Of a DNA stretch of 64,000 nt, positions 14,512 through 64,000 are shown in pieces. How positions within the stretch are numbered: position 1 is the stretch's first letter; every line of letters starts with the position of its first letter. A program made the translations under genes and the position numbers. The notes under the pieces are model-generated. The model did no database searches. It was not told the DNA's origin and worked only from the letters and a program-made list of their open reading frames with translations. Origin of the DNA: a virus (Duplodnaviria; Heunggongvirae; Uroviricota; Caudoviricetes); IMG/VR virus record IMGVR_UViG_3300022719_000284, positions 90,827 through 154,826 of that record. The stretch is one strand, 5' to 3'.

Positions 14512-14515
14512 CATT

Positions 14516-15439: not shown

Positions 15440-15445
15440 TGAGAT

Positions 15446-15886: not shown

Positions 15887-15926
15887 TTACTGTAATTTAA
15901 TACCTCACCTACCCTAAAGAGTATTC

Positions 15927-20700: not shown

Positions 20701-21076
20701 ATTTTTAATGGGTGAAGAAGAAGCTAATAAAGCACTCGCTGATACTTTACATTACAAACTATATGACTTAAGGGAAAGTAAAGCAATAGGAAAAATACAT
20801 CTACCTACACCAGAAGAAGGTGGGGTAGTTTTACTCATGGTAAATGAAAGGGATTACATTGAATTATACCAACAGCTAGTTGATCTATGTTTTTATGAAG
20901 GTGCTGAATGGATGACAGCAAAAATCACCAGGGCACAAGAGCAAAGCGCGGAATCAACTAGCGATCTAATTCCTTTAGCAAATTACATATTGATCGCACA
21001 CATGAATTTAGTAAAAGAAGATACTTATGACTTTTTAAGAAGGTTGACACATTTGCAGGAATGGTTACCAAACTGA
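20690..21076 (+). CDS. hypothetical protein (about 128 aa; alternative start 20645 in the ORF track)
   Basis: ATG at 20690 overlaps the upstream stop; no motif recognised. Confidence 0.35.
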   Translation: MSPRFLMGEEEANKALADTLHYKLYDLRESKAIGKIHLPTPEEGGVVLLMVNERDYIELYQQLVDLCFYEGAEWMTAKITRAQEQSAESTSDLIPLANYILIAHMNLVKEDTYDFLRRLTHLQEWLPN

Positions 21077-21169
21077 TCTTTCCAGTAAGACTGGTTGTCT
21101 TTCTGGGTAGAAAGAGGACATTAAGTCCATAACTTAACAAGGCTGAATGCCATAAAATAGGAGAAAGAG

Positions 21170-21946
21170 ATGCGCTCTTTCATTATTTTGCTGATTGCTG
21201 TAGCGGGGATGGTCCTCGCATCACCGTCTTACGCCATTTTTGATGGCGGAGATGACAACTCCACCAATAGCACCGCCCAGGCTACTGGGGTAGGCGTGGG
21301 TGTTGCTGGTTCGGACGCAGCGGCGAATGCTGGTGTGTCTAAATCTGGCAATAGTGCCAATCTCAACAAGAACAAAAACACTGCTGTTTCTGGTTCCGGT
21401 GTTTTTGGGTCTGGTAATAGCAAGTCTACTGCTATTAACGGCCCGAACACCGCTGTTACTGGTCCATCTATTTCAGATGCCTCTGCTTTCTCGGGGGTTG
21501 ATTTCGAAGACGCCAGTTTCGGAAATAGCCGAAACGAAAACACCCTTGTAGGCAAGCAGAGTCAACATCAGGGGCAAAGTCAGAATCAAGGTCAGGTTAC
21601 TGACACAGATCAGAAGAATAAGCAGGAAACCGATCTAAGTGTAGATGCATCCGATAGGTCTACCACTCTAGTGCAGGATACTCGCGATCCTGTTGCTTCG
21701 GCTGCTCCTGTTTTTGCTTCTGCTTGTTCGGCTGGAGTTTCTGCCCAAAGCTACGGCTTTGGTGGTGCTCTAGCTAGTACCAATCCCATGTGTGATCTTG
21801 CCCTTGCGGTCGAGCTTGCTTTGAAGGTTGGTAACACCGAGCTTGCTAATGAGCTAACCGAGCGTGCGGCTTCTTTCTCTAAGAACCGCACGAACCCGGT
21901 TCGAGTATATGGCCAGTGGATTCCTTTCTTCGGACAGCTATTCTAG
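21170..21946 (+). CDS. secreted low-complexity Gly/Ser/Ala/Asn/Gln-rich protein with an N-terminal signal peptide (258 aa)
   Basis: 'MRSFIILLIAVAGMVLASPSYA' signal peptide. 'aggagaaagagATG' RBS. Locally higher GC than the flanks. Confidence 0.5.
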   Translation: MRSFIILLIAVAGMVLASPSYAIFDGGDDNSTNSTAQATGVGVGVAGSDAAANAGVSKSGNSANLNKNKNTAVSGSGVFGSGNSKSTAINGPNTAVTGPSISDASAFSGVDFEDASFGNSRNENTLVGKQSQHQGQSQNQGQVTDTDQKNKQETDLSVDASDRSTTLVQDTRDPVASAAPVFASACSAGVSAQSYGFGGALASTNPMCDLALAVELALKVGNTELANELTERAASFSKNRTNPVRVYGQWIPFFGQLF

Positions 21947-22008
21947 TAGCTATTGAGGAATGTTGGGGCGGGGTTTATCCCCGCCCCCTTGGACAAAAGG
22001 AGTCTACT

Positions 22009-22686
22009 ATGCAAAAAAATAGATCTGTTTTCTGGATTCTACTGATCGTAGCTTTCCTGCTTGCTTGGGGCGGCAAATCTACCGCTGATACCAAGGTTCA
22101 TGGTTTTAATATCCCAACGGCAGAAAGTTCCACGGATCCGCATATCGCGGTGTGCGGAGCTACCTCTTCTGGGACTATTGAGGGGGGAGTTCAAGGGCGT
22201 CTCGCTGATCGTCGCATGTCTGGTACAGACAGCCGAACGTATGGCGTAGCGTACTGCTTTCCTGCACAAAGAGTCTCCGGTCCTAGGGAAGTATCCGTAC
22301 CGGATCCGGTGACCGAAGCTATCGAAGTTGTAGAACACAAACTGGTAACCTTTTTTGATCACGACTCTGCGGATTTCTCAGATCTAAAAGCAGAGGAGGC
22401 AATTAAGGTTATTGTTGATTGGTTACGGACTACGCCAAGTGCTGGTCTCGTAGTCAAAGGGCATACGGATTCAACCGGAGATCCCGACTACAATATGGCT
22501 TTATCAGTTCAGCGTGCTGAAACTGTTAAAATGTTGTTTGTAGAAGCTGGAGTTTCACCCGATCGTATCAAATCTGTTGGATATGGTGAGACATCTCTAT
22601 TAGTAAATGTACTAGGGAGAAACCAAGAAAATCGCCGAGTTGAAATCGAAGTTTTCCAGATTGAAGAAGTTCTTGTTCAAGAGTAA
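22009..22686 (+). CDS. OmpA-family peptidoglycan-binding protein with a signal peptide (about 225 aa; ORF track starts at 21916)
   Basis: ATG at 22009 is preceded by 'aaaggag'. 'MQKNRSVFWILLIVAFLLAWGG' signal. C-terminal OmpA_C motifs 'GHTDSTGDPDYNMALSVQRAETV...NRRVEIEV'. Confidence 0.7.
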   Translation: MQKNRSVFWILLIVAFLLAWGGKSTADTKVHGFNIPTAESSTDPHIAVCGATSSGTIEGGVQGRLADRRMSGTDSRTYGVAYCFPAQRVSGPREVSVPDPVTEAIEVVEHKLVTFFDHDSADFSDLKAEEAIKVIVDWLRTTPSAGLVVKGHTDSTGDPDYNMALSVQRAETVKMLFVEAGVSPDRIKSVGYGETSLLVNVLGRNQENRRVEIEVFQIEEVLVQE

Positions 22687-22693
22687 AGGAAGT

Positions 22694-22730
22694 AAGGGAG
22701 GGGCTTAAATGCCCCTCCCTTAGGTTTTGG
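22694..22730 (+). terminator. rho-independent terminator: perfect 11-bp GC-rich stem (aagggaggggc / gcccctccctt), 6-nt loop, then 'aggttttgg'
   Basis: Read directly from the sequence, immediately after the OmpA-like gene stop. Confidence 0.6.
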
Positions 22731-22738
22731 AGACTACT

Positions 22739-23884
22739 TTGAAGAAAGTGCTCGTAACATCTTGCCCATCGCTTCACAATGTTGTTCAACTAGAACCTAC
22801 CCTAGAAGCGATATATTACGAACATTTTCCTTGCGAATTAACCCTCCGAACATGGGAAGGTTACATTCCATTTTTTGAAAACCATCCTTTGATAGAAAAT
22901 GTAATTACCAAAGACTCCAAAATCGATTTTATTCCCGAAGTAGAAATAATAGAAATATCAGATCTAGAATCGTGGGACGCACCAGTAGCAACTGTAGATA
23001 AATTTGCTATATCCGCCAAAGTACAACTTCTACGTAAAACTCCAAAGATTTTCTTAAACCCTTTCCCTCCCGATAGAAACATAGTTGTCCAAGCTGATGT
23101 CCCTCACTTGTTAGATTCTTGGCATTTTCCAAATAATATAAAATCTTTCAAAGAAATCCCGATTGTAAGGCTTGAGCAACCTAAAAACAATGATTATCTA
23201 AGACTTCAATTAACGGTTTTAGCTTCTTCAGCTTTGGTGGTAGGTCCTGACAGTTGGATGACTCAAGCGGCAGCAGCATTAGACGCCCGAGTAGTGATGG
23301 GCTTAGACTCTCCGCATAAAGAACCATTACGCGCCCCTATAAATGTTACTGTATCTAACAAAGATAAAGATAGCATTTTCAATACAGTGCAGGATGTTTT
23401 ATATGAAAAACGATATCCAGATTTTCTAAACTGCGGTAACGCGGCTGAATTCATAAAAAACAAAGCTAAGATGTACATGAAGTCAAATTTTATTGATGTG
23501 GGGTGCAGTAACTGGCCTATACCAAATGGAATTCCTGTTGATACGCACAATAGAGAAATTATAGAAAAAGCTCCTGATAATTATTTTTCAGGAGTTTTTT
23601 CCTCACATTGCTTAGAACACATCCGAGATTGGAAGAAAGAGTTAAAATTATGGCATAGGGTTACCAGAAATGGAGGATACATATTCATGTATCTACCTCA
23701 CCCCCGTGCAGAAGTTTGGCATGCTTTTACCGGATCCTGGGTAGGTGACAACCATGTCTGGAATCCAGAACCTGTTACTTTGGTAAAGTTCCTTAAAGAA
23801 GAATTAGGGATGAACATAATCGAATATACTTCTCGACGAGATTCTTTGTGGAGTTACTACATAATAGCGAGAAAATATGACTAG
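22739..23884 (+). CDS. GT9 (heptosyltransferase)-like domain fused to a C-terminal class-I SAM methyltransferase-like domain (about 381 aa; TTG start, ORF track starts at 22727)
   Basis: N-terminus 'KVLVTSCPSLHNVVQLEPTLEAIYYEHFP' is GT9-like and paralogous to 24358..25494. C-terminus 'FIDVGCSNWP...VFSSHCLEHI...NGGYIFMYLP' carries SAM-MTase motifs. GGAG sits 6 nt before the TTG at 22739. Confidence 0.5.
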   Translation: MKKVLVTSCPSLHNVVQLEPTLEAIYYEHFPCELTLRTWEGYIPFFENHPLIENVITKDSKIDFIPEVEIIEISDLESWDAPVATVDKFAISAKVQLLRKTPKIFLNPFPPDRNIVVQADVPHLLDSWHFPNNIKSFKEIPIVRLEQPKNNDYLRLQLTVLASSALVVGPDSWMTQAAAALDARVVMGLDSPHKEPLRAPINVTVSNKDKDSIFNTVQDVLYEKRYPDFLNCGNAAEFIKNKAKMYMKSNFIDVGCSNWPIPNGIPVDTHNREIIEKAPDNYFSGVFSSHCLEHIRDWKKELKLWHRVTRNGGYIFMYLPHPRAEVWHAFTGSWVGDNHVWNPEPVTLVKFLKEELGMNIIEYTSRRDSLWSYYIIARKYD

Positions 23885-23947
23885 AAATGGGTCGTTGCTG
23901 CTATTCCATAGAGGGACGAAACTTACAAGAAGCAGTGGAATTTTAAT

Positions 23948-24358
23948 ATGATGAAGAAAACCGATTCTGGGCCTTTGATAGAGACTGAGGCTTCTCCTGA
24001 GAAGAAACTGGAAGCTACTTCCGAAGAACAGGTTGATACCAGCGCGTGGGATAACATCATCGAGCTTATCCTAAATCTGGACCCTGATAAGTACGGTAAG
24101 CCTTTCTCCGATGTTGAGCTTCAGAAGATGTGTGAGATCGTCTCTGCGGGCAGGGGGAAATTTCCTAAGAAAGTCATCCCCTATGTGGAGCTTATGCGCA
24201 AGTTCCTTTTCGCAAACTATCAGCTCATCGCTTTGGCCGCTTTAGCTCACAAAACAGCCCAGGATAAATCCAAAGAAGAGAAACAGCTTGTCAAGCCGGC
24301 TAACTTCTCTGACCTGGGGAAGATAGAAGCCGAGAAGCTGAAGAATCAAGGTAGCTGA
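23948..24358 (+). CDS. hypothetical charged protein (136 aa)
   Basis: ORF between the two GT9-like paralogs; Lys/Glu-rich. Confidence 0.4.
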   Translation: MMKKTDSGPLIETEASPEKKLEATSEEQVDTSAWDNIIELILNLDPDKYGKPFSDVELQKMCEIVSAGRGKFPKKVIPYVELMRKFLFANYQLIALAALAHKTAQDKSKEEKQLVKPANFSDLGKIEAEKLKNQGS

Positions 24359-25494
24359 TGATGAACGTCACGAAGGTGCTAGTAACGAGATACGGCGGTG
24401 CCGGTGACATGATTATGATGGAACCGGTTTTAGAGGCATTGTACTACAAGTTCACGCCCGCAGAGATCCATCTTCGCACGCATTTCCACTACACAGATCT
24501 TCATGAGTTCCACCCCCTGATTCAAAATATTGTTCCGGGTGTTCTAACAGCCAATCCGCAAGAGATGGCCAAAGGCATTCTAAGCGACGAGAAGAAGCCT
24601 CAAGGGTTCGACTATTTCTATAACACAACCGGTAGCGTGGAAATGAACCGAGGCATACATGGTATAGATAGTTTTGCCTTTGCGTGCAGCGCAATCCCGT
24701 TCCGTAGAACCCCAGTGATGTATCTAGACCCCTCCGTCCCCGTAGAGTCCAGAGACATCGTGATCCATACCCCCAAAAAGACAGACAAGAGCCCACGAAA
24801 CAACGACTTCAGAACGTTCGGAGCGTCGGCTGTGACCAAGTTTTTAGACCAGCAAGGTATAAAGTATGATTCTATTGTCGATATTGGGTCTGAACCAGAG
24901 ACAGAAGACGCTCTACAAAATTTCGCCAGAACAATTGCCGGAGCCAAGCTGTTCATAGGCCCAGATTCGGCCGGGGCTCACATCGCCTCGGCGCTCAGCG
25001 TGCCAAGAATTGTAGCCGCATACACGGATTATTTCCCCGCAGGGATTAGAGCGTACCCAAACACTACAATCCCTGTTCGAGACAACAACATTGATGGCTT
25101 ACTGAGTGCCGTTGAAACAGCCTACACAAGCCTACACAAGCCTCTACCAGATCCTCTAGTATCCCTGCTCGTAAAATCACAGAAGTACGCTTACGGGAGA
25201 ACCTGCGGCCCCCAGGATAAGGCAAATCAGTCGGGTTACGATCTGATCCAAAGGCTCCAAATAACTTTTGAAGAAAACTGGAGACATGAGGTTTTTGATT
25301 TGATGGAAAGATTGTCCCCTAGGGGAATATTGTACTTGTACGAGAAGCACCCTAGGTTCGGTGGGACAGAAGATCCCATAATGATCGCTAAATATCTAAT
25401 CCAAACTTGTGGAATGGAAATTGTGGAATATTCTGCCACAGCAGACGAATATGGCCATTTTTTCGTCGAAGCTAGAAAGCTGGATCGTTCTTGA
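24358..25494 (+). CDS. GT9 (heptosyltransferase)-like glycosyltransferase, paralog of 22739..23884 (378 aa)
   Basis: 'KVLVTRYGGAGDMIMMEPVLEALYYKFTPAEIHL' is a GT9 N-terminal signature. C-terminus 'GMEIVEYSATADEYGHFFVEARKLD' is collinear with the paralog C-terminus. Confidence 0.5.
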   Translation: MMNVTKVLVTRYGGAGDMIMMEPVLEALYYKFTPAEIHLRTHFHYTDLHEFHPLIQNIVPGVLTANPQEMAKGILSDEKKPQGFDYFYNTTGSVEMNRGIHGIDSFAFACSAIPFRRTPVMYLDPSVPVESRDIVIHTPKKTDKSPRNNDFRTFGASAVTKFLDQQGIKYDSIVDIGSEPETEDALQNFARTIAGAKLFIGPDSAGAHIASALSVPRIVAAYTDYFPAGIRAYPNTTIPVRDNNIDGLLSAVETAYTSLHKPLPDPLVSLLVKSQKYAYGRTCGPQDKANQSGYDLIQRLQITFEENWRHEVFDLMERLSPRGILYLYEKHPRFGGTEDPIMIAKYLIQTCGMEIVEYSATADEYGHFFVEARKLDRS

Positions 25495-25529
25495 CAATCC
25501 ATATAACTTAAAACTCGGAGTATAAGATT

Positions 25530-25772
25530 TTGGAAACTGAATTAACTGGACCTTTTTCTAAATCTCGACAATGGCTTTTGAATTACCTATCAACAGCTAA
25601 ATTTAGAAATGAAATTATACAAGGGTCATTAAAAGCTGATTGGTCTGAGGTGGAGCACGCACGTGCCGCCTATTTACTGGGATGTCTTTGGGGGCGTTTG
25701 AGACAAGTAGATTCTTCCCTTGAGAATGCTACTGAATATGGAGCATTAGTAATAGAGGAGCTAAATGAATAA
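25530..25772 (+). CDS. hypothetical protein (80 aa)
   Basis: ORF with 4-nt overlap to the downstream oxygenase gene. Confidence 0.3.
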   Translation: METELTGPFSKSRQWLLNYLSTAKFRNEIIQGSLKADWSEVEHARAAYLLGCLWGRLRQVDSSLENATEYGALVIEELNE

Positions 25773-26404
25773 TGCAAGACTTCATAGTTTTAGACAATTG
25801 GCTTCCAATAGGGCAAGCAGAGGAAATTGCATCCAAAATTAGCAGAATACAAAATTGGGATGTTAGAATATGTGACAAAGACGGGGGCCCAAGAGTTGTA
25901 AAAAATGAGAGTCTCAAAAGTTTGGGAATAACAGCAGAGGAGTATGCTAAAGACTATCCAGAAAGTTTGGCCCAATTAGCCCGTGGCGGAACAATGGCTT
26001 ACTTGTTCTTTGTCAAACATCTTTCTGAATTTGACCCTATCCTTCTAAATTGGTTTAATACAGAATTCTTGTCTACGGCTAATATGATTACTGAACAAGA
26101 GAATAACTATACAGAAGAGCCCCAGGTAACTATGTATTCATCTGGGTGCTTTCTTGGGCAACATAGTGATGGAGTCGGCTCTAGGCAGGTTGCCTTTATT
26201 GCAAATTTCACACGCAATTGGCAACCTGATTTTGGTGGGTGTCTTACTATTCTTACACAAGGCAAGTGGCAGGTAATACCTCCAAAATTCAATTCGATTG
26301 TTTTTATGAATGTTAGATCAGCAAATTGTCACTATGTTAGTCAAGTTTCGAGCTGGGTACAAAACAACAGAACCGCCATTACAGGGTGGATAGGTAGAAG
26401 ATAA
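25772..26404 (+). CDS. 2-oxoglutarate/Fe(II)-dependent oxygenase superfamily protein (210 aa), possibly prolyl/lysyl-hydroxylase-like
   Basis: 'GQHSDGVGSRQVAFIANF...GGCLTIL...NCHYVSQV' fits the HxD...H facial triad in a double-stranded beta-helix context. Confidence 0.55.
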   Translation: MQDFIVLDNWLPIGQAEEIASKISRIQNWDVRICDKDGGPRVVKNESLKSLGITAEEYAKDYPESLAQLARGGTMAYLFFVKHLSEFDPILLNWFNTEFLSTANMITEQENNYTEEPQVTMYSSGCFLGQHSDGVGSRQVAFIANFTRNWQPDFGGCLTILTQGKWQVIPPKFNSIVFMNVRSANCHYVSQVSSWVQNNRTAITGWIGRR

Positions 26405-28641: not shown

Positions 28642-31185
28642 TTGAGCCTGCACTGGGAGAGTTTTGTGTCGGATACCCAGAAGTGCCCCCACTGTGGAAG
28701 TGATTCACTTCAAAAACGTGGACTTACCAGATCAGAAGAACCAAAGCAGCAATATGCTTGCAATGAATGTGGACGCTGGTCTTTAATATCTATAGTTGAA
28801 TTAAAAAGTGGTCCTGAATTCTTTCTTGATAAAAAGAAAGTAGCTGAGTTAGAACGTAAAGAAAGATATTTCATAACTAGCTCACAAAATAACACTCATA
28901 TAGACAGAAATTTCTGGAAAGCCATCAAACACTATACTAAGGAAAATGGCTCAGAACTTCTAATCCTCCCTATTCGTTACAAGAATCCTACATCTTACCT
29001 TCAGCCGCAAGATGATGACGATGCTGTATGGTGGCCTGAAGAAGTTCTAGATTATCTTGTTGAAAATAAGTTAAAAATACACCCAGAACTGTGGATTATG
29101 GGGAACATGAGAATCCAAGCCACAATGGTAAACCCCCTATCTGGTTTGGAGGGCATGAGCCAGTATGCTTCTGCTATCTACGGTCACGGGCAGCTTCAGA
29201 TGAAGACAGTCCCTACTCCGCAGAATGCTCTTCCTAAGATACTTCACACTACTGGATCGTGTAGTGTTAAAAATTATAGTAAAACCAAAGCAGGAGTTAA
29301 AGGTGAGTTTCACCACTCCAAAGCCGGACTAGTTGTGGAAAAGAAAGGAAAGAAATTCCACCTTAGACAAGTCATTTGGGATGGGGAATGCTTTTACGAT
29401 TTAGATAAAAAGTACACCGCCAATGGAGTTACAAGAAACCACAGAATAGATGCCTTAGTAACCGGTGACGAACACGTTCTATTTAACGATCCGGAAGTAA
29501 AAGCTGCTACATACACTGACAATGGTTCTATAGCTAACACATTAAAACCGAAAGTTATAGTCCGTCATGATGTTTTTGACGGATACAGTATATCTCACCA
29601 TCACAGAAACAATCCAGTTACTCAATACATAAAATGGAGAGAAAACATAAACAAAGTTGAAGATGAGTTGCAAGCCACTATAAACTTCATAGAAGAAACC
29701 ACCCCCCAAAATGCAACAAACATAATAGTTTCTTCAAACCATAATGAGCATCTGTATAGATGGTTAAGAGAAGTAGATTGGAAAGCAGAGCCATGGAATG
29801 CCAAAATATATCACTGGTTTTGGTATAATATGCTAAATGAAGCTGAATTTGGGGAGTCTGGAGCTTTTACTTTCGACCCATTCGCGTATTGGGCAGAACA
29901 GAACATGGACTCTAATTGCCCCATCAAATTCCTGGGGCGCGATGAGTCTTTCGTGGTAAACAAAATTGAGTTGTCTTTGCACGGAGACCTGGGTCCAAAT
30001 GGTAGCAGGGGTTCTGCGGTCAACCTGAACAAAATTGGTATTCGGTCTGTAATCGGGCATTGCCTTACAGGAGACCACGACGTACTAACGAGATCTGGAT
30101 GGAAAAGCATAGCCGATGTTCCTTCTGGAAGTGAAATTCTTACTACAAAAGATGGTCATAACATTTGGTCTAAAACAACAGAAAAACAAGAATATCTATA
30201 TAGCGGAAAATTAGTTAACTTAAACCATTTAGGGCAGACTGTTACGCCAAATCACAGGATGGCTATGTCGGACGGATCTTTAGTTCCTGTGTGTGAAGCT
30301 ATTATGACAAGGAAAGCTAACGAGGTACCTATTTCTGCCGCTCCTTGCTCTGAAGGTATAATCTCTATACCAGAAATGCCTTTGCGAAGACTTGTAGCTG
30401 CGTGTGCTGATGGCAGCTTTTACAAAAATAGTCTGTCTTTCAACCTAAAAAAGAATCGTAAGCACGAAAGGCTGAAGTTCTTGTTCGGTGATTCCCTTCG
30501 TGACAAAGGATCTGTCAAAGGCAACGGAGCAATTCGAAGAACAGTATCTATGGGTTCTGAACCCTACAAAGAAATCATCAAGTATATAAATCCAACCACA
30601 GAATGTAAAAGACTACCTCATTGGTTTATAGACTTATCGGAAGAATGCCGATCAATAGTCATTGACGAACTAGTATACTGGGATGGCACAGGAAGAGATT
30701 GCGAAGCAGGAAAACAGTTCTCGACTTCAAAAGAGGACGAAGCTAATATAGTTGCAGCTTTGTGTACTTTACAAGGATACCGTACAATCTTCTTAGAAAG
30801 GGTAGACCACGGACGCACAGAGTATTTGGTTACTTGGACACAAGGCGAGCCAGCACACAGCACTGATCAAGAGCATGACGAAGCGCGTATAGGAGCTTGG
30901 CAGGCAAATACTATAAATGTCGAGAATGAGGCCGTATATTGTTTCACAGTTCCCGAAACCCATTGTTTTTGGGTAAGGGACAAGAAAAAGGGAAAGGTCT
31001 CGTTAACTGGAAATTCCCACAGCCCTTGTATAGAAAAGGGCGTCGTGCAAGTAGGAACCAGCTCCTACCTGAAGCTGGAGTACAACCCAGGTCCCAGCTC
31101 GTGGATGAATTCTCATTGTGTTGTATATAAGAATGGAAAACGAGCCCTACTCAACGTACTCGACGGCGGAGAATGGCGCGGGTAG
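28642..31185 (+). CDS. N-terminal Zn-ribbon plus calcineurin-like metallophosphoesterase (Mre11/SbcD-like motifs), interrupted by an intein (847 aa precursor)
   Basis: 'CPHCGS...CNECG' Zn-ribbon. Phosphoesterase motifs 'VTGDEHV', 'SSNHNEH', 'LHGDLG', and 'IGH|...|SHS' (GHxH split by the intein). Confidence 0.65.
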   Translation: MSLHWESFVSDTQKCPHCGSDSLQKRGLTRSEEPKQQYACNECGRWSLISIVELKSGPEFFLDKKKVAELERKERYFITSSQNNTHIDRNFWKAIKHYTKENGSELLILPIRYKNPTSYLQPQDDDDAVWWPEEVLDYLVENKLKIHPELWIMGNMRIQATMVNPLSGLEGMSQYASAIYGHGQLQMKTVPTPQNALPKILHTTGSCSVKNYSKTKAGVKGEFHHSKAGLVVEKKGKKFHLRQVIWDGECFYDLDKKYTANGVTRNHRIDALVTGDEHVLFNDPEVKAATYTDNGSIANTLKPKVIVRHDVFDGYSISHHHRNNPVTQYIKWRENINKVEDELQATINFIEETTPQNATNIIVSSNHNEHLYRWLREVDWKAEPWNAKIYHWFWYNMLNEAEFGESGAFTFDPFAYWAEQNMDSNCPIKFLGRDESFVVNKIELSLHGDLGPNGSRGSAVNLNKIGIRSVIGHCLTGDHDVLTRSGWKSIADVPSGSEILTTKDGHNIWSKTTEKQEYLYSGKLVNLNHLGQTVTPNHRMAMSDGSLVPVCEAIMTRKANEVPISAAPCSEGIISIPEMPLRRLVAACADGSFYKNSLSFNLKKNRKHERLKFLFGDSLRDKGSVKGNGAIRRTVSMGSEPYKEIIKYINPTTECKRLPHWFIDLSEECRSIVIDELVYWDGTGRDCEAGKQFSTSKEDEANIVAALCTLQGYRTIFLERVDHGRTEYLVTWTQGEPAHSTDQEHDEARIGAWQANTINVENEAVYCFTVPETHCFWVRDKKKGKVSLTGNSHSPCIEKGVVQVGTSSYLKLEYNPGPSSWMNSHCVVYKNGKRALLNVLDGGEWRG
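30061..31014 (+). mobile_element. intein (about 318 aa) inserted in the GHxH phosphoesterase motif; likely contains a homing-endonuclease domain
   Basis: Block A 'CLTGDHDVLT'. Block B 'GQTVTPNHRM'. Block F 'VYCFTVPETHCFWV'. Block G '...LTGN' followed by a +1 Ser. The flanks rejoin as 'SVIGH-SHSPC', i.e. GHSH. Confidence 0.65.
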
Positions 31186-31381: not shown

Positions 31382-31699
31382 ATGTTAGAAAGAGTTACTG
31401 TAGCTGGATTTGCTCTGATTCTTTTTCTTTCTGGATGTGCTTCCCCGTTGGAATGCTACAAAATTGAATCAGCAGATACATGGGTATCTGGTGGGCCCCA
31501 AAGTTGGGAATCTGATTCAGAGTCCAATAACCGACGAGGAAGAACAACAGATCAAACTAGGTCTAATGGGGATGGTTGGAGTGTTGACGTTGGCTTGAAC
31601 TTACATTGGGGTGCAAATTCCTGTGACTGGGTTTATGTAGATGAAGAAAAAAGCCCACCTCCGGGAAACCAGAAGCCTGGGAGATCTACTCCAGATTAG
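31382..31699 (+). CDS. small lipoprotein (105 aa)
   Basis: Signal plus lipobox 'LILFLSG-C' ('tggagaatgaATG' RBS). Converges on the SPFH gene with a 14-nt overlap. Confidence 0.5.
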   Translation: MLERVTVAGFALILFLSGCASPLECYKIESADTWVSGGPQSWESDSESNNRRGRTTDQTRSNGDGWSVDVGLNLHWGANSCDWVYVDEEKSPPPGNQKPGRSTPD

Positions 31700-32261
31700 G
31701 AATACCTTTGGATCCTATAGACCCATCTCCTACGATAGATATTACTTGAGTTGGGGCAAAAGTAGTTAATCTAGCAATTTCAACATTTACTCCAAAATTC
31801 TTTACAGCATTTTGAACTTCTCTCGTCAATCTGTTGTCTATTTTTGCCCTGCCTTCATTGATATCTTGAACTGTCTCTGCTAACACTGCTTTCCTGATTC
31901 CTGTTTGCGCGGCCTCAGACATAGAATCAGCAGCGTCATAGTTTTCAACCATAAACATATACAAATCAGTAATTGAATATATTACAACTCCGCCCACAAC
32001 AACGTTAGTGTTCCCATTAGGCGACGTATCATCTTTACAAACCACTGTTTGTCTGGGAAGCTCCATGACTTGTCTTACGACCGGGTATATCTCTAGCTGC
32101 GTTGTTATAGGCCAATAGACATGAATTCCCGGCTCAACTACCTTAGCTTTATCTCTTACGAATTTTATGGCCTTTTCTGTGGCTCTAACATGAAATATTT
32201 GCGGAATCCAATTAGCAAACCACGTTACTAGTTCTCCTATCCACCCAAGAGCTGCATCCAT
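31686..32261 (-). CDS. SPFH/band-7 (stomatin/prohibitin-like) domain protein (191 aa)
   Basis: 'FHVRATEKAIKF...VVEPGIHVYWPI...YPVVRQVMELPRQTV...DDTSPNGNTNVVVGGVVIY' is the typical SPFH core. Confidence 0.7.
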   Translation of the reverse strand: MDAALGWIGELVTWFANWIPQIFHVRATEKAIKFVRDKAKVVEPGIHVYWPITTQLEIYPVVRQVMELPRQTVVCKDDTSPNGNTNVVVGGVVIYSITDLYMFMVENYDAADSMSEAAQTGIRKAVLAETVQDINEGRAKIDNRLTREVQNAVKNFGVNVEIARLTTFAPTQVISIVGDGSIGSKGIPNLE

Positions 32262-33576: not shown

Positions 33577-33733
33577 AGAAGCTTCCCAAGACAGCCCATT
33601 TATCGTCTTGGATCTCCTCCAAAGTCATTCCTGAGGCATTTAGACTCTTTTGTACTTGAATAGGATCAAACCCCTCATAACCGACCCAAAGTAAAGTTTT
33701 ATCATTTTTAATTTTAGTTATCATCAATGCCAT
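33539..33733 (-). CDS. small hypothetical protein (64 aa)
   Basis: TGATG-coupled to the HNH gene (overlap at 33733). Confidence 0.3.
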   Translation of the reverse strand: MALMITKIKNDKTLLWVGYEGFDPIQVQKSLNASGMTLEEIQDDKWAVLGSFYGKQNIQESNDG

Positions 33734-34191
33734 TAAATTTTCTCCACATTAGGGTATTTGTTTCTTATATGATCTTCTATAATTTTTCTAGTGTAATGGG
33801 CCATAGACATACCTCTATCTCTGGCTATTAATTGAAGAGCATCTCTATAGGTTTTATTTAGTTTTAAACCTATTCCTATTTCCCTGTCGGGATTTGCTTG
33901 AGCCCTATCTCTTTCAAGGAGACCGCTTTTCACAACTAATTGGGCCAACTCCATGCATCTTTTTTGGGATGAACCATCAATAAACATTTGTTGAACTGAG
34001 CTTCTTACTTCCCCAACTCTTTTAGGGTTTCTCATCATTCTAGCGATAACGTGCATATCTTGGTGACACCCGGAGCAAAGACTAACTAAATTAGCAGGAT
34101 CATCCGATCCTCCAAGAGACTTTGGTATTTTATGGTGTTTATTCACAAAATCCAAAGGCTTCTCAGATTCACAAATGTAACATCTAAACAT
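33733..34191 (-). CDS. HNH endonuclease (152 aa)
   Basis: 'CYICESEKPLDFVNKHHKIPKSLGGSDDPANLVSLCSGCHQDMH' is an HNH/Zn-finger signature. Confidence 0.75.
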   Translation of the reverse strand: MFRCYICESEKPLDFVNKHHKIPKSLGGSDDPANLVSLCSGCHQDMHVIARMMRNPKRVGEVRSSVQQMFIDGSSQKRCMELAQLVVKSGLLERDRAQANPDREIGIGLKLNKTYRDALQLIARDRGMSMAHYTRKIIEDHIRNKYPNVEKI

Positions 34192-46038: not shown

Positions 46039-49613
<3,575 letters not shown>

Positions 49614-49614
<1 letters not shown>

Positions 49615-50177
49615 TAGATTCTCCAGTTAAGACGAGCAGCTATGCTCCCTAATCTAATCCATGTTATTTCTTCTGTTTTTGAGGAAAATCTAATCTTGTT
49701 AAAATTAAGTTCAATACCTTCAAATTCGTCAGAGCCGGAATAAGTCTTACCCTCTCCCGGATTCACATAGGCTATTGTTATATGAGGCTGATATTCAGGA
49801 AATTTATCTTCATTTTCTAAATTGTCTTTTAGTTTGTTGTGTATCCTATGTAGGTCTTTTGATTTGACATCTATTTTTACCACATCATAATCTTCATTCT
49901 CAAAAAGAGATATTTTCCCTAGAGTAGCTTTTATAGGGCTTTCACCTTGAAGAATTTTTCTCACAGGATCTGGATCTTCATCTACCAATCCGTAAAGAAC
50001 TGTGCAATGAATTGTATCTTCTCGACCCATAGAATCGTCTTCCGGGTCTTCATAAAGCTTGCTATCAGGTATATTTTTCTTGCCCCATTCTATAATATTT
50101 TTAGCGACATTCTCCGGTAAATTAACCTGAGTTGATGCATAGCTATAGTCTGCTGTCACGTCCCAGTTAAATACCAT
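49614..50177 (-). CDS. 2H phosphoesterase superfamily protein (LigT / 2',3'-cyclic phosphodiesterase-like; 187 aa)
   Basis: Two H-x-T/S-x motifs ('IHCTVLYG' and 'PHITIAYV') at the spacing typical of the 2H fold. Confidence 0.55.
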
Positions 50178-53074: not shown

Positions 53075-55921
53075 TTACGAAAGCTCTTCTTTAACCTTTT
53101 TCCAAACTACATCAACAGTATTAGCAGCCATACAGCTATTCAAAGTGTTTTTAGGATAGTCTTCTTGTGGAAGTGTAGTAGTTTCGTGAGAAACTAAATA
53201 AGGGCATGGAGGTTTGGGGTGAGCCGACATACTATTGTATTCTCGATAGCATGGTTGGCATTCCTTAGTAGGACCTTCATTGCCCATATTTCTAAACCAC
53301 GTAGAACCATTAACTAAATTGATATTTTGATCATACCCAGATCCACAAGGATGAGTAGATCCCCATACGATAATTGATCTCTTTCCCACAGCTTGAGAAG
53401 TATGGTTAAAAACAGAATCTCCTCCGATAAACAAAGCAGAGAATTTCTGTACAGCCGCAGCATGTTTAATTGATGGTGTATTTAACTTTATAGCACCAGG
53501 GATAGGTTTTTCGTTTTCCGACCCAATTTGTACAACTTCATAACCAAGTTCTTCTTTAATTTTTTGGACTAAGGACTCATACCAATTAAAGGGCCAATTC
53601 TTGAGAGGAGACCATCCCGCTGTAGTGTGTATAACTACCTTACCAGAGCCATGATTAGCTCCGTAATCAAGATGTTCTTGTGTCAATCCTATGCTGAGAT
53701 CCATAGAGGCAGCAACTCCAGCTTGCTCACAAAAGAAGGCAGCCAAGTGTTGTCTCATGGGTGCATCAGGATAACCCTGATGCATAGGGTACTGAAAAAG
53801 GACACTCTTTTCTGGGTTTTCCAGCTCCTGTGTAGCCTCCATTATTTTTTGATAATTATTCTCCGGTATAGCTACTACCTCATCTACAAATGGATTGTTT
53901 GAAATAGCATCCACAGAAGAAGGATGACAGATATATCGTACAAAATACCCCTGTTCTTTTAGACCTTTACAGGCAGCAGTAGACATGATAATGTCCCCCA
54001 GAGCACCAGGGCGACATACTTGTACAATTTTATTGTTAGGTTTTGGGGGTGTATTTGAGCCAGGAAACCTTAGGGCTCTTAGTTGGGCCAATCTAGATTC
54101 CCAAGATTTATCTGGGGCACCTATTTTTTCTGCCGCAAGTTCTCCATATGAAATGGCCTTTTCTATGTCCCCCAAATGCTCCCAACACCAACTGATCAAA
54201 CGCCAAGGCTGATCTTTATAGGCTCCAGTGTTCAAAAACATCAAAGTATTAGGTAGAGGGTTAGAGGCTGCATGTACAGCCCACGAAATTGCTTGCTTAA
54301 ACTTGTCTAAATCTCCGCTTTGTCTTCCTTCCTCGTATTTCATTCTAGCAATAGCCATGTATGGCTCGGCCCAATGGGAATTGGTTGCTATAGCTTGACA
54401 GAAGGCCCTGAAAGCTTGATCTTTTTGGTTTAAACTATGATGACAAAAGCCCTTATACATCCATGCCCAGAATCTTTCATCGTGCCATCCAAGATTTTTT
54501 ATAAGATATCTATCGTATCTTTCTAAGGCTTCTTCGTGGCGCCCAGACTCTCTTAACCCATTCCCAAGATAGAACAAGGTTCTACCTTCTCCATCGAACT
54601 CACCTGGGCATAGAGGGCAAGGTTGAGGCCCCTCGGCCTCGGCTTCTAATAGAATTTCAATATTTCTAGTCGAAGCATCTTTAGGTTTGGGTAAATGTGT
54701 TAACGTAATATCATCACATTTCAACTTCAGTGGACCATAACCGCCCAATTGAACATATTCATGACATTTATCGTGAAAGTGCGGTTTAAACACATTTCCA
54801 CGCCCATCATCTATAGACTCATTTTTCCATAATCTTAAATGGAAAAAAGTATCGCCACCGTATATTAGCCGCCAATCTTGAGGATTGTTTGGAAATTCTT
54901 CTAAAAGAGAAAGGATTTTCTCTGGAGAATCTGGAGAAAGAACATCATCGCAGTCCATCCAGGCAACATGGGTTCCTTCGCATGCCGTAATAGCTTCATT
55001 TTTAGCTCTAGCAAAGTTATTATCCCAATAACCATCTATAATTTTTGTACGAATGCCTGTTCTATTTCCAAATTCTTTGATTATTTTTGAAGTTCTATCT
55101 GTAGAGTTGTTAAGATAAACTACTACTTCCCAAGCTAAAGGAGCAATGCTGTTTAACATTCTACCAATAACTTCTTCTTCGTTACAAGAAATGACAGCAA
55201 AAGAAATTCTAATATCCTCTGCTAATCTTAACTGCCAATCTATTTGGCCAAGTTCTGACTGTTCCCATTCGTCAAAAACTCTAAATCCTTCTTTCTTGCA
55301 TAAGAGCTTAAAGGAATCCTTAGAAAATATGATGGGATGTACTTGATAATGTTCGTCTGTTAGATGAATAGGTAGACCCCTAGCCCCGACAACAGGAGTT
55401 CTAATATATACTACTCCCTTTTCTGTCAGAAGACTTTTTATCTTCTTCATCGCTTGCACAGGGTCAGAGAAATGCTCAATACAGTGAACCAAAGTTATCA
55501 AGTCAAACTTTTGGTCACCAAAATCATGTTCGAGAAAGTTTCCGACAACCATCGGAACGCCAAGCTCTTCCCCGTAAAATTCTGCCTCATCGCATCCATC
55601 TATACCTAGCTGAGTATCCACTCCTAAATCCTTGAAACATTTAAGGAAATAAGGATACTTTGATCCTATGTCTAGGACGCTTTTAGGTTTGTGATGCCAT
55701 GTTAATCGCTCTGCTAAATCTTTATTCAGTAGCTTAGCAATATCGTTCATAGCTTCACGGCCAGAGGATGGCTGAAGCTCAGATTCCCACATAAAGTTAG
55801 GAGGGGGGAATTGAGACCAAAGTCCACAATTATTGCAAGATAAGTAAGGAGTTCGACCAATACCGGGGACTTCAGTAGAAGTGAAATCTACACCCCCACA
55901 GACGGGACAAATGCTCTGCAT
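53075..55921 (-). CDS. multidomain modification enzyme (948 aa): Zn-ribbon, class-I SAM methyltransferase, GT2 (GT-A) glycosyltransferase, TPR repeats, GT9-like domain
   Basis: 'CPVCGG...CNNCG'. MTase motif I 'VLDIGSKYP' and 'DLITLVHCIEH'. GT2 'ISFAVISCNEEE...DCDDVLSP'. TPR-like helices. C-terminal 'IVQVCRPGALGDIIMSTAACKGL' is a GT9 signature. Confidence 0.65.
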   Translation of the reverse strand: MQSICPVCGGVDFTSTEVPGIGRTPYLSCNNCGLWSQFPPPNFMWESELQPSSGREAMNDIAKLLNKDLAERLTWHHKPKSVLDIGSKYPYFLKCFKDLGVDTQLGIDGCDEAEFYGEELGVPMVVGNFLEHDFGDQKFDLITLVHCIEHFSDPVQAMKKIKSLLTEKGVVYIRTPVVGARGLPIHLTDEHYQVHPIIFSKDSFKLLCKKEGFRVFDEWEQSELGQIDWQLRLAEDIRISFAVISCNEEEVIGRMLNSIAPLAWEVVVYLNNSTDRTSKIIKEFGNRTGIRTKIIDGYWDNNFARAKNEAITACEGTHVAWMDCDDVLSPDSPEKILSLLEEFPNNPQDWRLIYGGDTFFHLRLWKNESIDDGRGNVFKPHFHDKCHEYVQLGGYGPLKLKCDDITLTHLPKPKDASTRNIEILLEAEAEGPQPCPLCPGEFDGEGRTLFYLGNGLRESGRHEEALERYDRYLIKNLGWHDERFWAWMYKGFCHHSLNQKDQAFRAFCQAIATNSHWAEPYMAIARMKYEEGRQSGDLDKFKQAISWAVHAASNPLPNTLMFLNTGAYKDQPWRLISWCWEHLGDIEKAISYGELAAEKIGAPDKSWESRLAQLRALRFPGSNTPPKPNNKIVQVCRPGALGDIIMSTAACKGLKEQGYFVRYICHPSSVDAISNNPFVDEVVAIPENNYQKIMEATQELENPEKSVLFQYPMHQGYPDAPMRQHLAAFFCEQAGVAASMDLSIGLTQEHLDYGANHGSGKVVIHTTAGWSPLKNWPFNWYESLVQKIKEELGYEVVQIGSENEKPIPGAIKLNTPSIKHAAAVQKFSALFIGGDSVFNHTSQAVGKRSIIVWGSTHPCGSGYDQNINLVNGSTWFRNMGNEGPTKECQPCYREYNSMSAHPKPPCPYLVSHETTTLPQEDYPKNTLNSCMAANTVDVVWKKVKEELS

Positions 55922-55947: not shown

Positions 55948-56490
55948 CTAAGGAGCGGTGTACGAGGCAATGTCTCCTGCGTCCATTACACTGCCTGATT
56001 CATCTCTCACTTCTATGATACCCCGTGTTATCAAATCCTGTAGATGGGTAATAAATCCATTCCCTACGGTTTCAGATAGAGCTTGCTCAAAAAGATCCTC
56101 TTGCAGCTCTATAGGTGCTATTCCCACATTTAACCCATAAGCTGGGTTAAATTCTATTCTCCCAGGAACGAAAGTATCACCCCTAATAACAGTAGATCCA
56201 CTAGTTGGGGCTATGTGAACAATGATTTGATTTTTTTCTTCTGAAGTAGACGAAGGTGCAGCAGCTCCTGTAGACCCATCTTCTGCAATATTTGTTCTGT
56301 GAGTCAAAGGAGAAGCACTAGCGATGAATCCAGGGCCAGGAGCAAAGGTACTTCCCGGAGGGTTGTTAAAGCTAGGCACCTGAGGTGGCTGTAGCGGAAA
56401 AGCGTATGGGGGATTAGGTCTGGTTTGAAATCCCGCTAACGGGCCTCCAGCATTAAAAGCATCGGGATGTATTCTAATAGAAATAGGCAT
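55948..56490 (-). CDS. Pro-rich hypothetical protein (180 aa)
   Basis: ORF; 'PNPPYAFPLQPPQVPSFNNPPGS'. Confidence 0.4.
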   Translation of the reverse strand: MPISIRIHPDAFNAGGPLAGFQTRPNPPYAFPLQPPQVPSFNNPPGSTFAPGPGFIASASPLTHRTNIAEDGSTGAAAPSSTSEEKNQIIVHIAPTSGSTVIRGDTFVPGRIEFNPAYGLNVGIAPIELQEDLFEQALSETVGNGFITHLQDLITRGIIEVRDESGSVMDAGDIASYTAP

Positions 56491-56518: not shown

Positions 56519-58393
56519 TTACGAATCTATACCAAAATCTACAACCAAAATTTGCCCCTCGTTAAACTGAACGCCAGGATCAATTTCACGAGCCTGGATG
56601 GCAATTTCATGTGATTGATTGTTATCTAAAGATCCCATCCAGAAACATATGGAAGAATCGTTTTGTGTCGCTAAAGCATCTTTATTACCAGCTCCAGCTC
56701 CTAAGACTCCTAAGGTTAAAGCACTTCCTGTTGGGTTCAATCTAATTCTTTGTTCGTAACTCCAAGCACCATCAGCGTCTGCTTGGTAATTTCCTTGAAT
56801 TAAAATCAAAATAGTAGAAGTTGTTAGATTTGGTCTGGATACAAGATTGTTGAAATTTATAGAAAATACAGTGGAAAATGAACTACTCAATAGAAGGTTG
56901 GAAGTAGTTGATTGTAACACAAATCCATTTACTACACGGGGTGTACCATCCGTACTTAATACACTTGATACTTGTGACGCCCAATTTAAAGCGTCTGCTC
57001 CCCCTATATCATGTCGCGAAGCATGAGCATGAATATCCATGTCATCAGCAGAATTCTTTTGGAACCTAGTATTAGGATCTAGATCCACTTTTCTATTAGG
57101 GCGGAACGTAATTGAAGGACCACCATCTGGAACATGCTGAAGGAAAAAAGAGTTATCCGGTGGCTTACAAAGAAGCCATTGATCAAACCCCCTATCTGAG
57201 AACACCATATGAGAATGCTGTGGTGCAGAAAATCCGCTATCAAGTGTCAGGGTTGTGTCATTATCGGCATTGTTATCCACCCTTAACTCATCGCCTTGAA
57301 CTCTCGCTCCCCCAATAACGTGAAGTCTCTGCGCTGGGGAATTGGTTCCTATACCAACATTTCCTGAGCCCTGAATAAACAAGGAAGAGGTAGGAGCATT
57401 TCCTTGAACCGTTATTGGGGTATTTCCAGTAACCTGATTAGATATAGAGAAAACACCAGCAGAACTTTTTCCAACTCTCCATACTGGGGTTCCTCTATCA
57501 GCAAAATCTATCATACTTTGCTGAGCAGTAGTGTCTCCAGAATTTATTTCAATTATTAGTGCCGAGTTAACGGAATTTTCAAAAGTTCTACTACCATCAA
57601 CTAGCACATAATGGAGATGGTCATCATCCCCTAAACCACTTAGTTGGTCGTGTACTGAAACGGGCCCAGTGGGACCAGTGGGTCCGGTAGTACCGGCTCC
57701 GGTGGCCCCCGTAGGCCCACCAGCGGGGCCCACAGAACCGGTTTCTCCCTGCTTTCCAGTCTCCCCTTGCTGGCCTTGATTACCAGTTACACCCTGAATT
57801 CCTTGATTTCCTTGGGGCCCTTGAGGCCCTGTTATTCCAGTTGAACCTGGTACACCTTGAGGTCCTGTTGGGCCTGTCCCCCCAGTAGCGCCACTAGTAG
57901 CACCTGTAGGGCCAGTTATCCCTATTCCTGTTGGACCAATAGAACCTGTTAAACCAACACCTCCCTGAGACCCTGTTGGGCCGGAATTACCTTTAACACC
58001 TTGAATCCCAGTTGGTCCTGTGCTACCCTTAGGTCCTGTTAATCCTATTCCTTGGGGACCGGGAGCACCAGTTACCCCTGTTGGACCTGTTATAGATTTA
58101 CCTTGGATACCAAGGGGACCTTGAGGCCCCTGTAAACCAGTGGGTCCTGTAGAACCTTTAAGACCAACCCCTCCTGTTGGTCCAGTAGAACCAGTAGAAC
58201 CAGTAGAACCGCTTGGACCTGGAACAGCTACAGGAGTAATACCAGTAGGACCAGTAGGGCCAGTAGGACCAACGCCAATAGGCGCTGTTGCACCCTGAGG
58301 CCCAGCAGGCCCAGTTATCCCTGTACCGGTGGAGCCAGTTTCCCCAGTGGGTCCGGTAGGTCCTGTGAATCCTGTAGGTCCAATTTGAGACAT
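56519..58393 (-). CDS. collagen-like fibre protein (624 aa)
   Basis: N-terminal Gly-X-Thr/Pro/Gln tract of about 240 aa (nt about 57665..58385), followed by '[15 protein letters not shown]' and a beta-rich C-terminal domain. Confidence 0.8.
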
Positions 58394-58421: not shown

Positions 58422-60682
<2,261 letters not shown>

Positions 60683-60683
<1 letters not shown>

Positions 60684-61015
60684 TAGTTACCTTCTCTCGC
60701 TTCTCTAACATCCCAAGCTGCAACATTCTGGATTACCTCTACCTTGAACCCAAATAAAGCTGATACTGCATAACAATGAGCTAGAAATTGCTTAGTATTT
60801 AACCAAGGCTGTTTAGGAACAGAAAAAGCTTCTTTAGAATGTCTAAGCATGTTAGTTGGACCGCTAACAATTACACTAGGTCTGATAGGGTGGGCGTCAG
60901 CAGTCCTGAGTGCTGATCCAAGATTACCTACTACTTCGCTAACTCTAGTAGCTTTAACAGGCAGGTGTACAACAACCATGTACCGTTTTGATGGTTCCAT
61001 TAGTAAATATTCCAT
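60683..61015 (-). CDS. hypothetical protein (110 aa)
   Basis: ATGA-coupled ORF. Confidence 0.35.

Positions 61016-61040: not shown

Positions 61041-64000
<2,960 letters not shown>

Follow-up and report, generated by a model that had tools for sequence, protein, structure and literature searches.

The 64,000-nucleotide stretch of Caudoviricetes DNA analysed here (positions 90,827 to 154,826 of IMG/VR record IMGVR_UViG_3300022719_000284; referred to below as the window, to which coordinates apply unless a locus is named) encodes on its minus strand at 53075..55921 a 948-amino-acid (aa) multidomain enzyme, which probably acts as a soluble cytoplasmic protein initiating, extending and methylating O-glycans on threonines of the phage's own collagen-like fibres. 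The open reading frame (ORF) is complete, with an ATG start and the stop codon included, and comprises in this order a four-cysteine ribbon, a class I S-adenosylmethionine (SAM)-dependent methyltransferase (MTase), a family 2 glycosyltransferase (GT2) domain of the GT-A type with a DCDD motif, tetratricopeptide repeats (TPRs) and a GT-B domain of the GT9 fold. All evidence for the enzyme and its family is computational. The five-module content, including the DCDD motif, the TPRs and the GT9-like domain, had been proposed in an earlier note on this DNA and is borne out by Pfam, family alignment and an AlphaFold model; the MTase, GT2 and GT9 profiles, to be checked domain by domain, all matched above the Pfam cut-offs, each domain call exceeding its gathering score. 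The role in fibre glycosylation proposed in the same note is supported by homology to the protein O-glycosyltransferase SgtA, by fibres rich in Gly-X-Thr triplets, by the association of SgtA-like and collagen-like genes in viral loci and by recurrence of the arrangement in relatives of 32 % identity. Since an SgtA homologue is here fused to a second glycosyltransferase (GT) and an MTase among fibre genes, the enzyme most likely decorates the phage's own fibres.

Central to this assignment are the GT2/GT-A catalytic domain (residues 237-415; 54677..55213, minus strand; defined by Pfam, family alignment, Foldseek and comparison with SgtA) and the subsequent TPR/helical repeat domain (residues 416-616; 54074..54676, minus strand; defined by Pfam, the model and the SgtA alignment), which is homologous to the C-terminal TPR region of SgtA and presumed to bind the acceptor. 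SgtA of Clostridioides difficile is a 358-aa protein consisting of a GT-A domain followed by TPRs, and the gene for it lies just upstream of bclA3 (PMC7157674). In vitro, it transfers β-O-linked N-acetylglucosamine (GlcNAc) onto Thr of the Gly-Pro-Thr (GPT) collagen-like repeats of BclA3 (PMC7157674). The sgtA gene was recovered from a C. difficile genome via a published primer, and the gene directly downstream of it (locus L018) encodes 153 collagen triplets, 108 of them (71 %) with Thr at the Y position. BLASTP aligned residues 237-598 of the window protein with residues 2-337 of SgtA (25 % identity, E-value 5e-29), while the family member P0018 shares 35 % identity with SgtA over 358 aa (3e-52) and the family profile matches SgtA in hhalign with a probability of 99.95 % (1.5e-38, 326 columns over GT-A and TPR). 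Because these matches span the catalytic as well as the TPR region, residues 237-598 are a complete SgtA homologue, beyond a generic "GT2 with TPRs".

Further comparisons agree with this homology. Pfam recognizes Glycos_transf_2 at residues 240-383 (5e-20) and TPR_2 at 448-473, with further, weaker TPR matches to about residue 513 in a region that is all-helical in the model; PHROG 13126 ("beta-1,4-glycosyltransferase") spans residues 238-598 and thus GT-A and TPR together. The three Asp of the D323-C-D325-D326 motif, which aligns with L-D-A-D-D of SgtA, do not vary among 16 family members, the most distant at 32 % identity, and neither does H387-E388. By fold (Foldseek), the GT-A/TPR region is closest to the glycocin S-glycosyltransferases SunS and ThuS (5e-16, about 400 columns), whereas the best Protein Data Bank (PDB) sequence match of the GT-A domain is GmaR, the flagellin O-GlcNAc transferase of Listeria (3e-6), followed by ThuS and SunS; the best NCBIfam match of the region is the SunS family, at a sub-threshold score. 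In each computable respect, the protein thus resembles SgtA-type GT2-TPR protein O-glycosyltransferases and is predicted to be one. An insertion between GT-A and TPR in the window protein carries a CPxC pair (residues 435-438; 54608-54619, minus strand), which recurs in the close clade as well as in P0014 and P0016 but is missing from SgtA and from the clade of 32-33 % identity.

Four genes for presumed substrates are encoded on the same strand: fibre 1 (61041..63689, minus strand; 882 aa) with a Collagen and a C-terminal Laminin_G_3/ConA-like domain, fibre 2 (58422..60683, minus strand; 753 aa) with Collagen and phage tail Collar domains, fibre 3 (56519..58393, minus strand; 624 aa) with a Collagen domain, and the collagen-like fibre 4 (46039..49614, minus strand; 1191 aa). 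Counting triplets in runs of at least 6, Thr occupies the Y position in 94 of 140 triplets (67 %) of fibre 1, 35 of 66 (53 %) of fibre 2, 27 of 59 (46 %) of fibre 3 and 174 of 217 (80 %) of fibre 4, with Pro, Ser or Ala commonest at X. Judged by these repeats, the fibres belong to the BclA/BclA3 type of collagen-like sequence. In transcription order, fibres 1-3 precede the enzyme gene; since the fourth collagen-like gene lies downstream, the enzyme gene has fibre genes to either side.

This gene order is also found in other viral loci carrying relatives of the enzyme (forward test). Five loci of the close clade are syntenic. In locus L010 (contig IMGVR_UViG_3300028840_006907, 469,617 bp), which encodes a relative of 32 % identity, a collagen-like gene for 3078 aa (13230-22466; 589 triplets, Thr at Y in 257) follows immediately downstream on the same strand, and in L003, with a relative of 32-33 % identity, a Gly-X-Thr ORF of at least 818 aa is located 2.4 kb downstream. 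In loci L011, with a relative of 32-33 % identity, and L013, the version encoded is of 747 aa, is missing the greater part of the MTase and has a 2070-aa and another collagen-like ORF as its neighbours. As background, 120 random viral loci (1.10 Mb) hold 5 collagen-like ORFs by the same criterion, 1 of them Thr-rich, corresponding to about 0.09 collagen-like ORFs and about 0.02 Thr-rich ones per 20 kb. Adjacency to collagen genes is not universal across lineages.

For the reverse test, 119 viral loci (0.995 Mb) were taken with a (GPT)4-encoding stretch as the sole criterion, and an ORF was counted as SgtA-like if it covered at least 60 % of the GT-A plus TPR profile at E ≤ 1e-5. Such ORFs were detected in 16 of the 119 (GPT)4 loci versus 0 of the 120 random loci (Fisher p = 8e-6; p = 1.4e-4 after collapsing to 12 clusters at 70 % identity). 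The positive loci are L150, L154, L163, L165, L168, L178, L181, L185, L189, L191, L210, L227, L229, L233, L250 and L252. Their SgtA-like ORFs measure 279-528 aa from stop to stop (most about 350 aa, some cut by contig ends), match C. difficile SgtA nearly end to end at 24-44 % identity, and are all located on the same strand as the collagen-like ORF at a distance of 0-4.8 kb; none carries GT9 or MTase modules. On the basis of both tests, an SgtA-type enzyme together with a GPT-collagen gene is a recurrent phage pairing, of which the window protein is the most elaborate form. In a non-exhaustive literature search, no paper was found that joins SgtA or BclA3 with phages or describes glycosylation of phage collagen-like fibres; the pairing looks general and apparently undescribed.

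The overall architecture of the enzyme was modelled from the family alignment with AlphaFold (mean predicted local distance difference test score, pLDDT, 85.3), yielding discrete modules and a disordered linker at residues 620-629; comparison of the full model with the PDB by Foldseek resolves three enzymatic units. A membrane-spanning segment is absent (maximum hydropathy over 19 residues 1.2), and the enzyme is accordingly soluble. About 20 full-length relatives of 32-76 % identity were found, all of them metagenomic and without informative names, on viral contigs of 78-267 kb and, in case of one distant relative, on the 469,617-bp contig. A megablast search of 19 kb against GenBank phages revealed no close cultured relative, and tblastn against deposited phages gave only partial, weak matches, namely to residues 774-873 from Caulobacter jumbo phages and to residues 238-616 (24 %) from a faecal phage. 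Since modules of the GT9 fold and of a type resembling the sugar MTase TcaB9 are added to an SgtA-type core, the fusion represents a new architecture.

The N-terminal ribbon (residues 1-35; 55817..55921, minus strand; based on sequence, conservation and fold matches) contains C5, C8, C29 and C32, and its C5xxC8...C29xxC32 pattern is kept in every family member having that N-terminus. It is followed by the class I SAM-dependent MTase (residues 60-232; 55226..55744, minus strand; Pfam and Foldseek), which matches Methyltransf_23 (residues 64-215, 1e-15) and Methyltransf_11 (1.6e-8). Taken together, ribbon and SAM domain find their best PDB matches in the C-3 methyltransferases of nucleoside diphosphate (NDP)-sugars KijD1, TcaB9 and MtmC (1e-10 to 2e-11), aligning over about 260 columns at reasonable root-mean-square deviation (TcaB9 has about 405 residues). 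As TcaB9, KijD1 and MtmC possess an N-terminal four-Cys Zn domain, the ribbon is best regarded as part of the MTase unit; of the separate Zn-ribbon module listed in the earlier note, the four cysteines stand and the independence does not. A TcaB9-type C-terminal NDP-sugar-binding domain is not apparent, there being no Pfam Methyltransf_13/14 match in the protein and the GT-A domain following directly. G86 and D140 are invariant and D108 nearly so in the family alignment, while motif I is atypical (D-I-G-S-K-Y-P instead of GxGxG). The resemblance to TcaB9-type enzymes, seen in the modelled fold, suggests a sugar-directed methyltransferase, but fixes neither membership in that group nor C- versus O-methylation. 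Relative to the SgtA-like and GT9 modules, the MTase is accessory.

The C-terminal GT-B domain (residues 632-885; 53267..54028, minus strand) is heptosyltransferase-like and displays the motifs G-D643, W-S-x-x-K774-x-W and D835-S-x-x-N-H. Pfam Glyco_transf_9 (PF01075) covers residues 704-859 (8e-7, 29.1 bits versus a cut-off of 22), and the C-terminal domain modelled alone reaches a pLDDT of 90.9. The family profile matches PDB entry 3tov (1.5e-7), WaaF (2e-3) and WaaC (0.014) and aligns the hallmark GT9 loops GD, K-x-W-P and D-S/T-x-x-x-H, of which, by analogy with WaaC, G-D presumably contributes the catalytic base region and K-x-W-P the nucleotide-sugar loop. Within the 16 family members mentioned above, G639, G642, D643, H765, G769, W770, S771, K774, W776, D835, S836, N839 and H840 are invariant. 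Heptosyltransferases of lipopolysaccharide (LPS) and the protein heptosyltransferase TibC are equally close in fold, with a score of 11.8 for the next GT-B fold, and the GT9 fold therefore does not name the acceptor, which is suggested solely by the fusion. Neither heptose-synthesis nor other sugar-nucleotide synthesis genes were seen in the 64-kb window.

A family-specific extension (residues 886-948; 53078..53266, minus strand; family alignment and model) ends the protein with four Cys, presumed to form a metal site, and a terminal helix. C888, C891, C906 and C930 (CQPC...C...C) are invariant in 16 of 16 members and are located in a loop region of lower confidence in the model. In TibC, an iron finger (Cys339/342/358/370) participates in recognition of the protein substrate, and a flattened N-terminal β-barrel precedes the catalytic lobes (PMC4358343). 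Using the TibC sequence from enterotoxigenic Escherichia coli H10407, homology of the four C-terminal Cys to this finger was considered and set aside as evidence: they are similar in position and in the CxxC[WY]...CP...C pattern, but sequence support is lacking, as hhalign against TibC gives a probability of 18.7 % with an alignment ending before the finger, and the profile of the C-terminal segment scores 0.7 bits against the finger, equalled or exceeded by 263 of 2000 shuffles. The TibC-type β-barrel is absent, the GT9 module in the model opening with a Rossmann-type β-α unit after the linker. Given the null finger test and the missing barrel, the GT9 module is not assignable to the protein-acting bacterial autotransporter heptosyltransferase (BAHT) family (TibC/AAH).

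The modules also occur in other combinations. An exhaustive HMMER search over 1.84 billion representatives retrieved 1857 proteins at E ≤ 1e-30; by our count, the layouts among the best 150 of these comprise about 16 full five-module proteins, about 16 of GT2-TPR-GT9 composition without MTase, others with MTase-GT2-TPR only, and some consisting of the GT9 module alone. In L016 (1433-3796) and L017 (9836-13536), the GT9 module with its four Cys (268-295 aa) stands alone and has as same-strand neighbour a separate gene for an SgtA-like protein (383-402 aa), a pair that is the unfused counterpart of the window fusion. Such alternation between fused and separate forms is an argument for a common pathway of the SgtA-like and GT9 modules.

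A three-step route may be envisaged for the enzyme. In the first and best supported step, the TPR domain would dock the GT-A domain on unfolded or folding Gly-X-Thr chains, and GT-A would attach, via its DxDD metal/nucleotide-sugar site, the first sugar to Thr at the Y position, probably an N-acetylhexosamine such as GlcNAc from uridine diphosphate (UDP)-GlcNAc by homology to SgtA. Fusion and fold suggest for the second step that the GT9-fold domain adds another sugar, adenosine diphosphate (ADP)-heptose being the usual donor of this family, and for the third that the Cys-ribbon/SAM MTase methylates a sugar, either on the NDP-sugar donor or on the finished glycan. The outcome would be a densely O-glycosylated collagen stalk. 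Synthetic (Gly-Pro-Thr)10 is triple-helical only with glycosylated Thr, and GPT triplets are anomalously frequent in viral collagens (PMC11923368). A plausible benefit is therefore stabilization of the triple helix without hydroxyproline; hydration, resistance to proteases or interaction with receptors may be secondary effects. Whether glycosylation precedes or follows folding, and how hydroxyproline-free, Thr-rich viral collagens acquire and keep their fold, are open questions according to the same study (PMC11923368). A broader proposal, to which we give slightly less than even credence, is that SgtA-type Thr glycosylation of fibres replaces hydroxyproline as a phage chemistry of collagen maturation, here expanded to an assembly line that initiates, extends and methylates. 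If true, it would explain the over-representation of GPT in viral collagens, and many environmental phages, including jumbo phages of 180-470 kb, would display methylated glycans on their host-recognition fibres.

Several observations weigh against the fibre-decorating role. The sequence does not reveal which sugars serve as donors. In the P0016/L005 and P0019/L006 (with L012) lineages, no collagen-like ORF is present in the available flanks of the incomplete contigs, the gene being situated beside helicase and terminase genes in the former and between RecA/SSB and ParB/terminase genes in the latter. The MTase is degenerate in P0016 and truncated or mostly absent in L011; moreover, the nearest MTase folds act on NDP-sugars and perform C-methylation, and the window protein is devoid of their C-terminal sugar-binding domain, rendering methylation the least secure of the three steps. 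Finally, a non-structural, Acb1-like gene occurs in the same gene string, so that string position alone does not imply a structural role.

A protein GT directed at a different acceptor, such as capsid, tail tube, or host flagellin or pilin, is a further reading: in the P0016 and P0019 lineages the gene is found near packaging/head or replication genes and no collagen-like ORF is within reach, GmaR is the best PDB sequence match of the GT-A domain, and glycosylation of mycobacteriophage capsids is a precedent. The latter is alluded to in PMC11256854. However, the match to SgtA extends over its whole length and takes in the TPR part, presumably the determinant of acceptor choice; in three divergent lineages the gene remains next to giant Gly-X-Thr ORFs, and the reverse association is specific to GPT-collagen loci, which renders a non-fibre acceptor unlikely. 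The gene's position could also be read as the host-recognition hypervariable region of large aquatic myophages, with the enzyme remodelling a host envelope glycan (LPS core, O-antigen, capsule), e.g., against superinfection. Combinations of MTase and GT occur in O-antigen pathways, the sequence relatives of the GT9 domain are WaaF and WaaC, and relatives of the protein carry the Joint Genome Institute label "ADP-heptose:LPS heptosyltransferase". In pelagimyophages, glycosyltransferases among tail-fibre genes were interpreted as modifying the host O-chain (PMC7029224). Such a function would, however, leave the TPR domain unexplained and is at odds with the full-length homology to SgtA, the protein- or peptide-directed activity of SunS, ThuS and GmaR alike, the statistical tracking of GPT-collagen genes by SgtA-like genes, and the lack of a membrane segment or lipid-carrier-type domain; we consider it rather improbable.

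The enzyme might, furthermore, be catalytic in its SgtA-like module only, the GT9 and/or MTase modules serving in scaffolding, oligomerization or sugar binding and the fibres carrying a monosaccharide. The stand-alone SgtA-like proteins (about 340-530 aa) without GT9 or MTase at the 16 positive loci could be taken in this sense, as could the degenerate and truncated MTases of P0016 and L011 and the atypical motif I. Yet D643, K774 and D835/H840 are invariant at 32-76 % identity, the Methyltransf_23 and Methyltransf_11 profiles align over their full length with the MTase, which retains G86, D140 and the near-invariant D108, and the recurrent fusion and adjacency of GT9 and SgtA-like modules suggests selection for joint activity, leaving a monosaccharide-only enzyme a small chance of being correct. 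Phage GTs and MTases are classically DNA-modifying, and the window also encodes ThyX and a DNA polymerase (PolA) with a domain resembling uracil-DNA glycosylase (UDG), which might indicate glycosylation or methylation of phage DNA bases against restriction. Nevertheless, the gene is part of the fibre string, some 33 kb away from the genes of nucleotide metabolism; Pfam, PHROG, NCBIfam and PDB searches yielded no similarity to known GTs or MTases of DNA, the MTase belongs to the small-molecule/sugar type, and TPR and SgtA homology point to a protein acceptor, so that a DNA-directed function is very improbable. Glycosylation of the phage's own collagen-like fibres is thus the reading that we retain.

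In the immediate neighbourhood of the enzyme, a 180-aa ORF of unassigned function (55948..56490, minus strand) is inserted between fibre 3 and the enzyme gene, its position being kept in close relatives, with a syntenic 189-aa gene in L001. The earlier placement of the enzyme directly after three collagen-like genes therefore holds for the three upstream fibres but not for the immediacy. Another ORF (110 aa; 60683-61015) separates fibres 1 and 2, and downstream of the enzyme four unknown ORFs and an Acb1/2H-phosphoesterase-like gene precede fibre 4. The small neighbouring ORFs (180, 211, 253, 339 and 118 aa) showed no informative match in Pfam, PHROG or PDB. Assignment of the region to a structural block or virion operon, as previously proposed, is supported by the fibre genes alone, the other neighbours being uninformative and the Acb1-like gene non-structural. 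Co-transcription is suggested solely by the same-strand gaps of 26-70 bp around the enzyme; in a promoter/terminator scan of 49-64 kb, the counts did not exceed the shuffle expectation.

The gene resembling Acb1 (49614-50177, minus strand; PF23474, 2e-10; PF13563, 2.5e-10), an inhibitor of the cyclic-oligonucleotide-based anti-phage signalling system (CBASS), forms part of the fibre string and sits immediately upstream of the collagen-like gene for 1191 aa, a position kept in L001 (69 % identity). In L001, a sulfotransferase gene (PF00685; 21126-21923) follows the largest fibre gene, and no equivalent was detected at 43.8-46 kb of the window; it may reflect a further, lineage-specific modification of fibre or glycan.

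A second cluster of candidate modification enzymes is located on the plus strand at 22727-26404 and encodes a 385-aa protein with a SAM-MTase in its C-terminal half and an N-terminal part weakly resembling the GT9 C-lobe, a 378-aa GT9-like protein, and a 210-aa 2-oxoglutarate-Fe(II) oxygenase of the prolyl-hydroxylase type (PF13661/PF13640). These enzymes had been proposed to complement the 948-aa protein; their presence is confirmed, the link between both sets being confined to weak GT9 paralogy (27 % over 117 aa, 8e-4, between the 378-aa protein and the GT9 domain described here), as no convincing similarity was found between the respective MTases. The cluster could provide further fibre-modifying chemistry. 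The rest of the window contains replication and nucleotide genes (PolA with UDG-like domain, ThyX, PIF1 helicase) and many unknowns. Assigned products are, on the plus strand, an ORF for 1189 aa that includes a short collagen-like stretch close to the C-terminus (10316-13885), the 1006-aa family A DNA polymerase PolA with an N-terminal domain of the UDG superfamily and a 3'-5' exonuclease (15927-18947), a protein with an OmpA-family domain (21916-22686) and an 847-aa DNA-transfer-protein/PhoH-like ORF (28642-31185), and, on the minus strand, an SPFH/Band 7 protein (31686-32261) and an HNH endonuclease (33733-34191). For the majority of the large ORFs at 1-15 kb and 34-45 kb, no family was detected.

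The window offers a concrete enzyme-substrate pair within a few kb and turns the open viral-collagen question into a problem of two-gene co-expression; the distribution across viral loci (16/119 versus 0/120) suggests a widespread phenomenon beyond one genome. In C. difficile, the enzymes extending the BclA3 glycan are unidentified despite a search (PMC7157674), and for the activities sought in that system the GT9 and MTase modules of the fusion are candidates. A glycan coat on the fibres would have consequences for host recognition by phages, for their stability in the environment and for the engineering of recombinant collagen.

Viruses bringing their own cytoplasmic glycosylation machinery for virion proteins are known, which is the likeness between the present enzyme and protein A064R of chlorovirus PBCV-1 (which modifies the capsid glycan by means of two GT domains and an MTase), the collagen hydroxylase/glucosyltransferase L230 of mimivirus and the mycobacteriophages. 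To our knowledge, phage-encoded virion glycosylation has been shown experimentally for only a few actinobacteriophages. A064R, in addition, unites GT and sugar methyltransferase activities in one polypeptide, and L230 shares the collagen-like type of substrate. In contrast, the hosts in these cases are eukaryotic algae, amoebae and actinobacteria, the enzymes belong to unrelated folds and families, the products are an N-glycan on the capsid (A064R) and glucose on hydroxylysine (L230), and an SgtA homologue directed at the Gly-X-Thr repeats of a phage tail fibre is not among them.

At the level of the modules, the GT9 enzymes WaaC, WaaF, 3tov and TibC share the aligned GD, K-x-W-P and D-S/T-x-x-x-H motifs with the window protein, TibC having also a four-Cys cluster late in the C-lobe; they differ in sequence (14-18 % identity) and in accepting Kdo (3-deoxy-D-manno-octulosonic acid) or heptose of LPS or autotransporter Ser, as compared to presumably a protein-linked sugar here. 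With TcaB9, KijD1 and MtmC, the protein has in common the succession of an N-terminal Cys ribbon and a class I SAM domain, and differs from them at the C-terminal side of this unit. SunS and ThuS (PDB 7msn, 7msp, 7msk) as well as GmaR (PDB 22ao) are likewise GT2-type enzymes glycosylating peptides or proteins in the cytoplasm, at 15-20 % identity and without fusion to MTase or GT-B domains; SunS and ThuS modify Cys/Ser of bacteriocin precursors and GmaR Ser/Thr of flagellin, i.e., none acts on collagen repeats. SgtA itself is bacterial with a spore-surface substrate, differing from the phage-encoded enzyme with its presumed tail-fibre substrate, does not possess the N-terminal Cys-ribbon MTase and C-terminal GT9-fold domain, and shares only 25 % identity with the window protein, the activity of which is predicted from sequence. 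Nevertheless, both are soluble, combine GT-A with a C-terminal TPR region, display the DxDD and N-terminal NEEEVIGR motifs, are expected to perform metal-dependent chemistry, and are encoded next to a Gly-X-Thr collagen-like gene.

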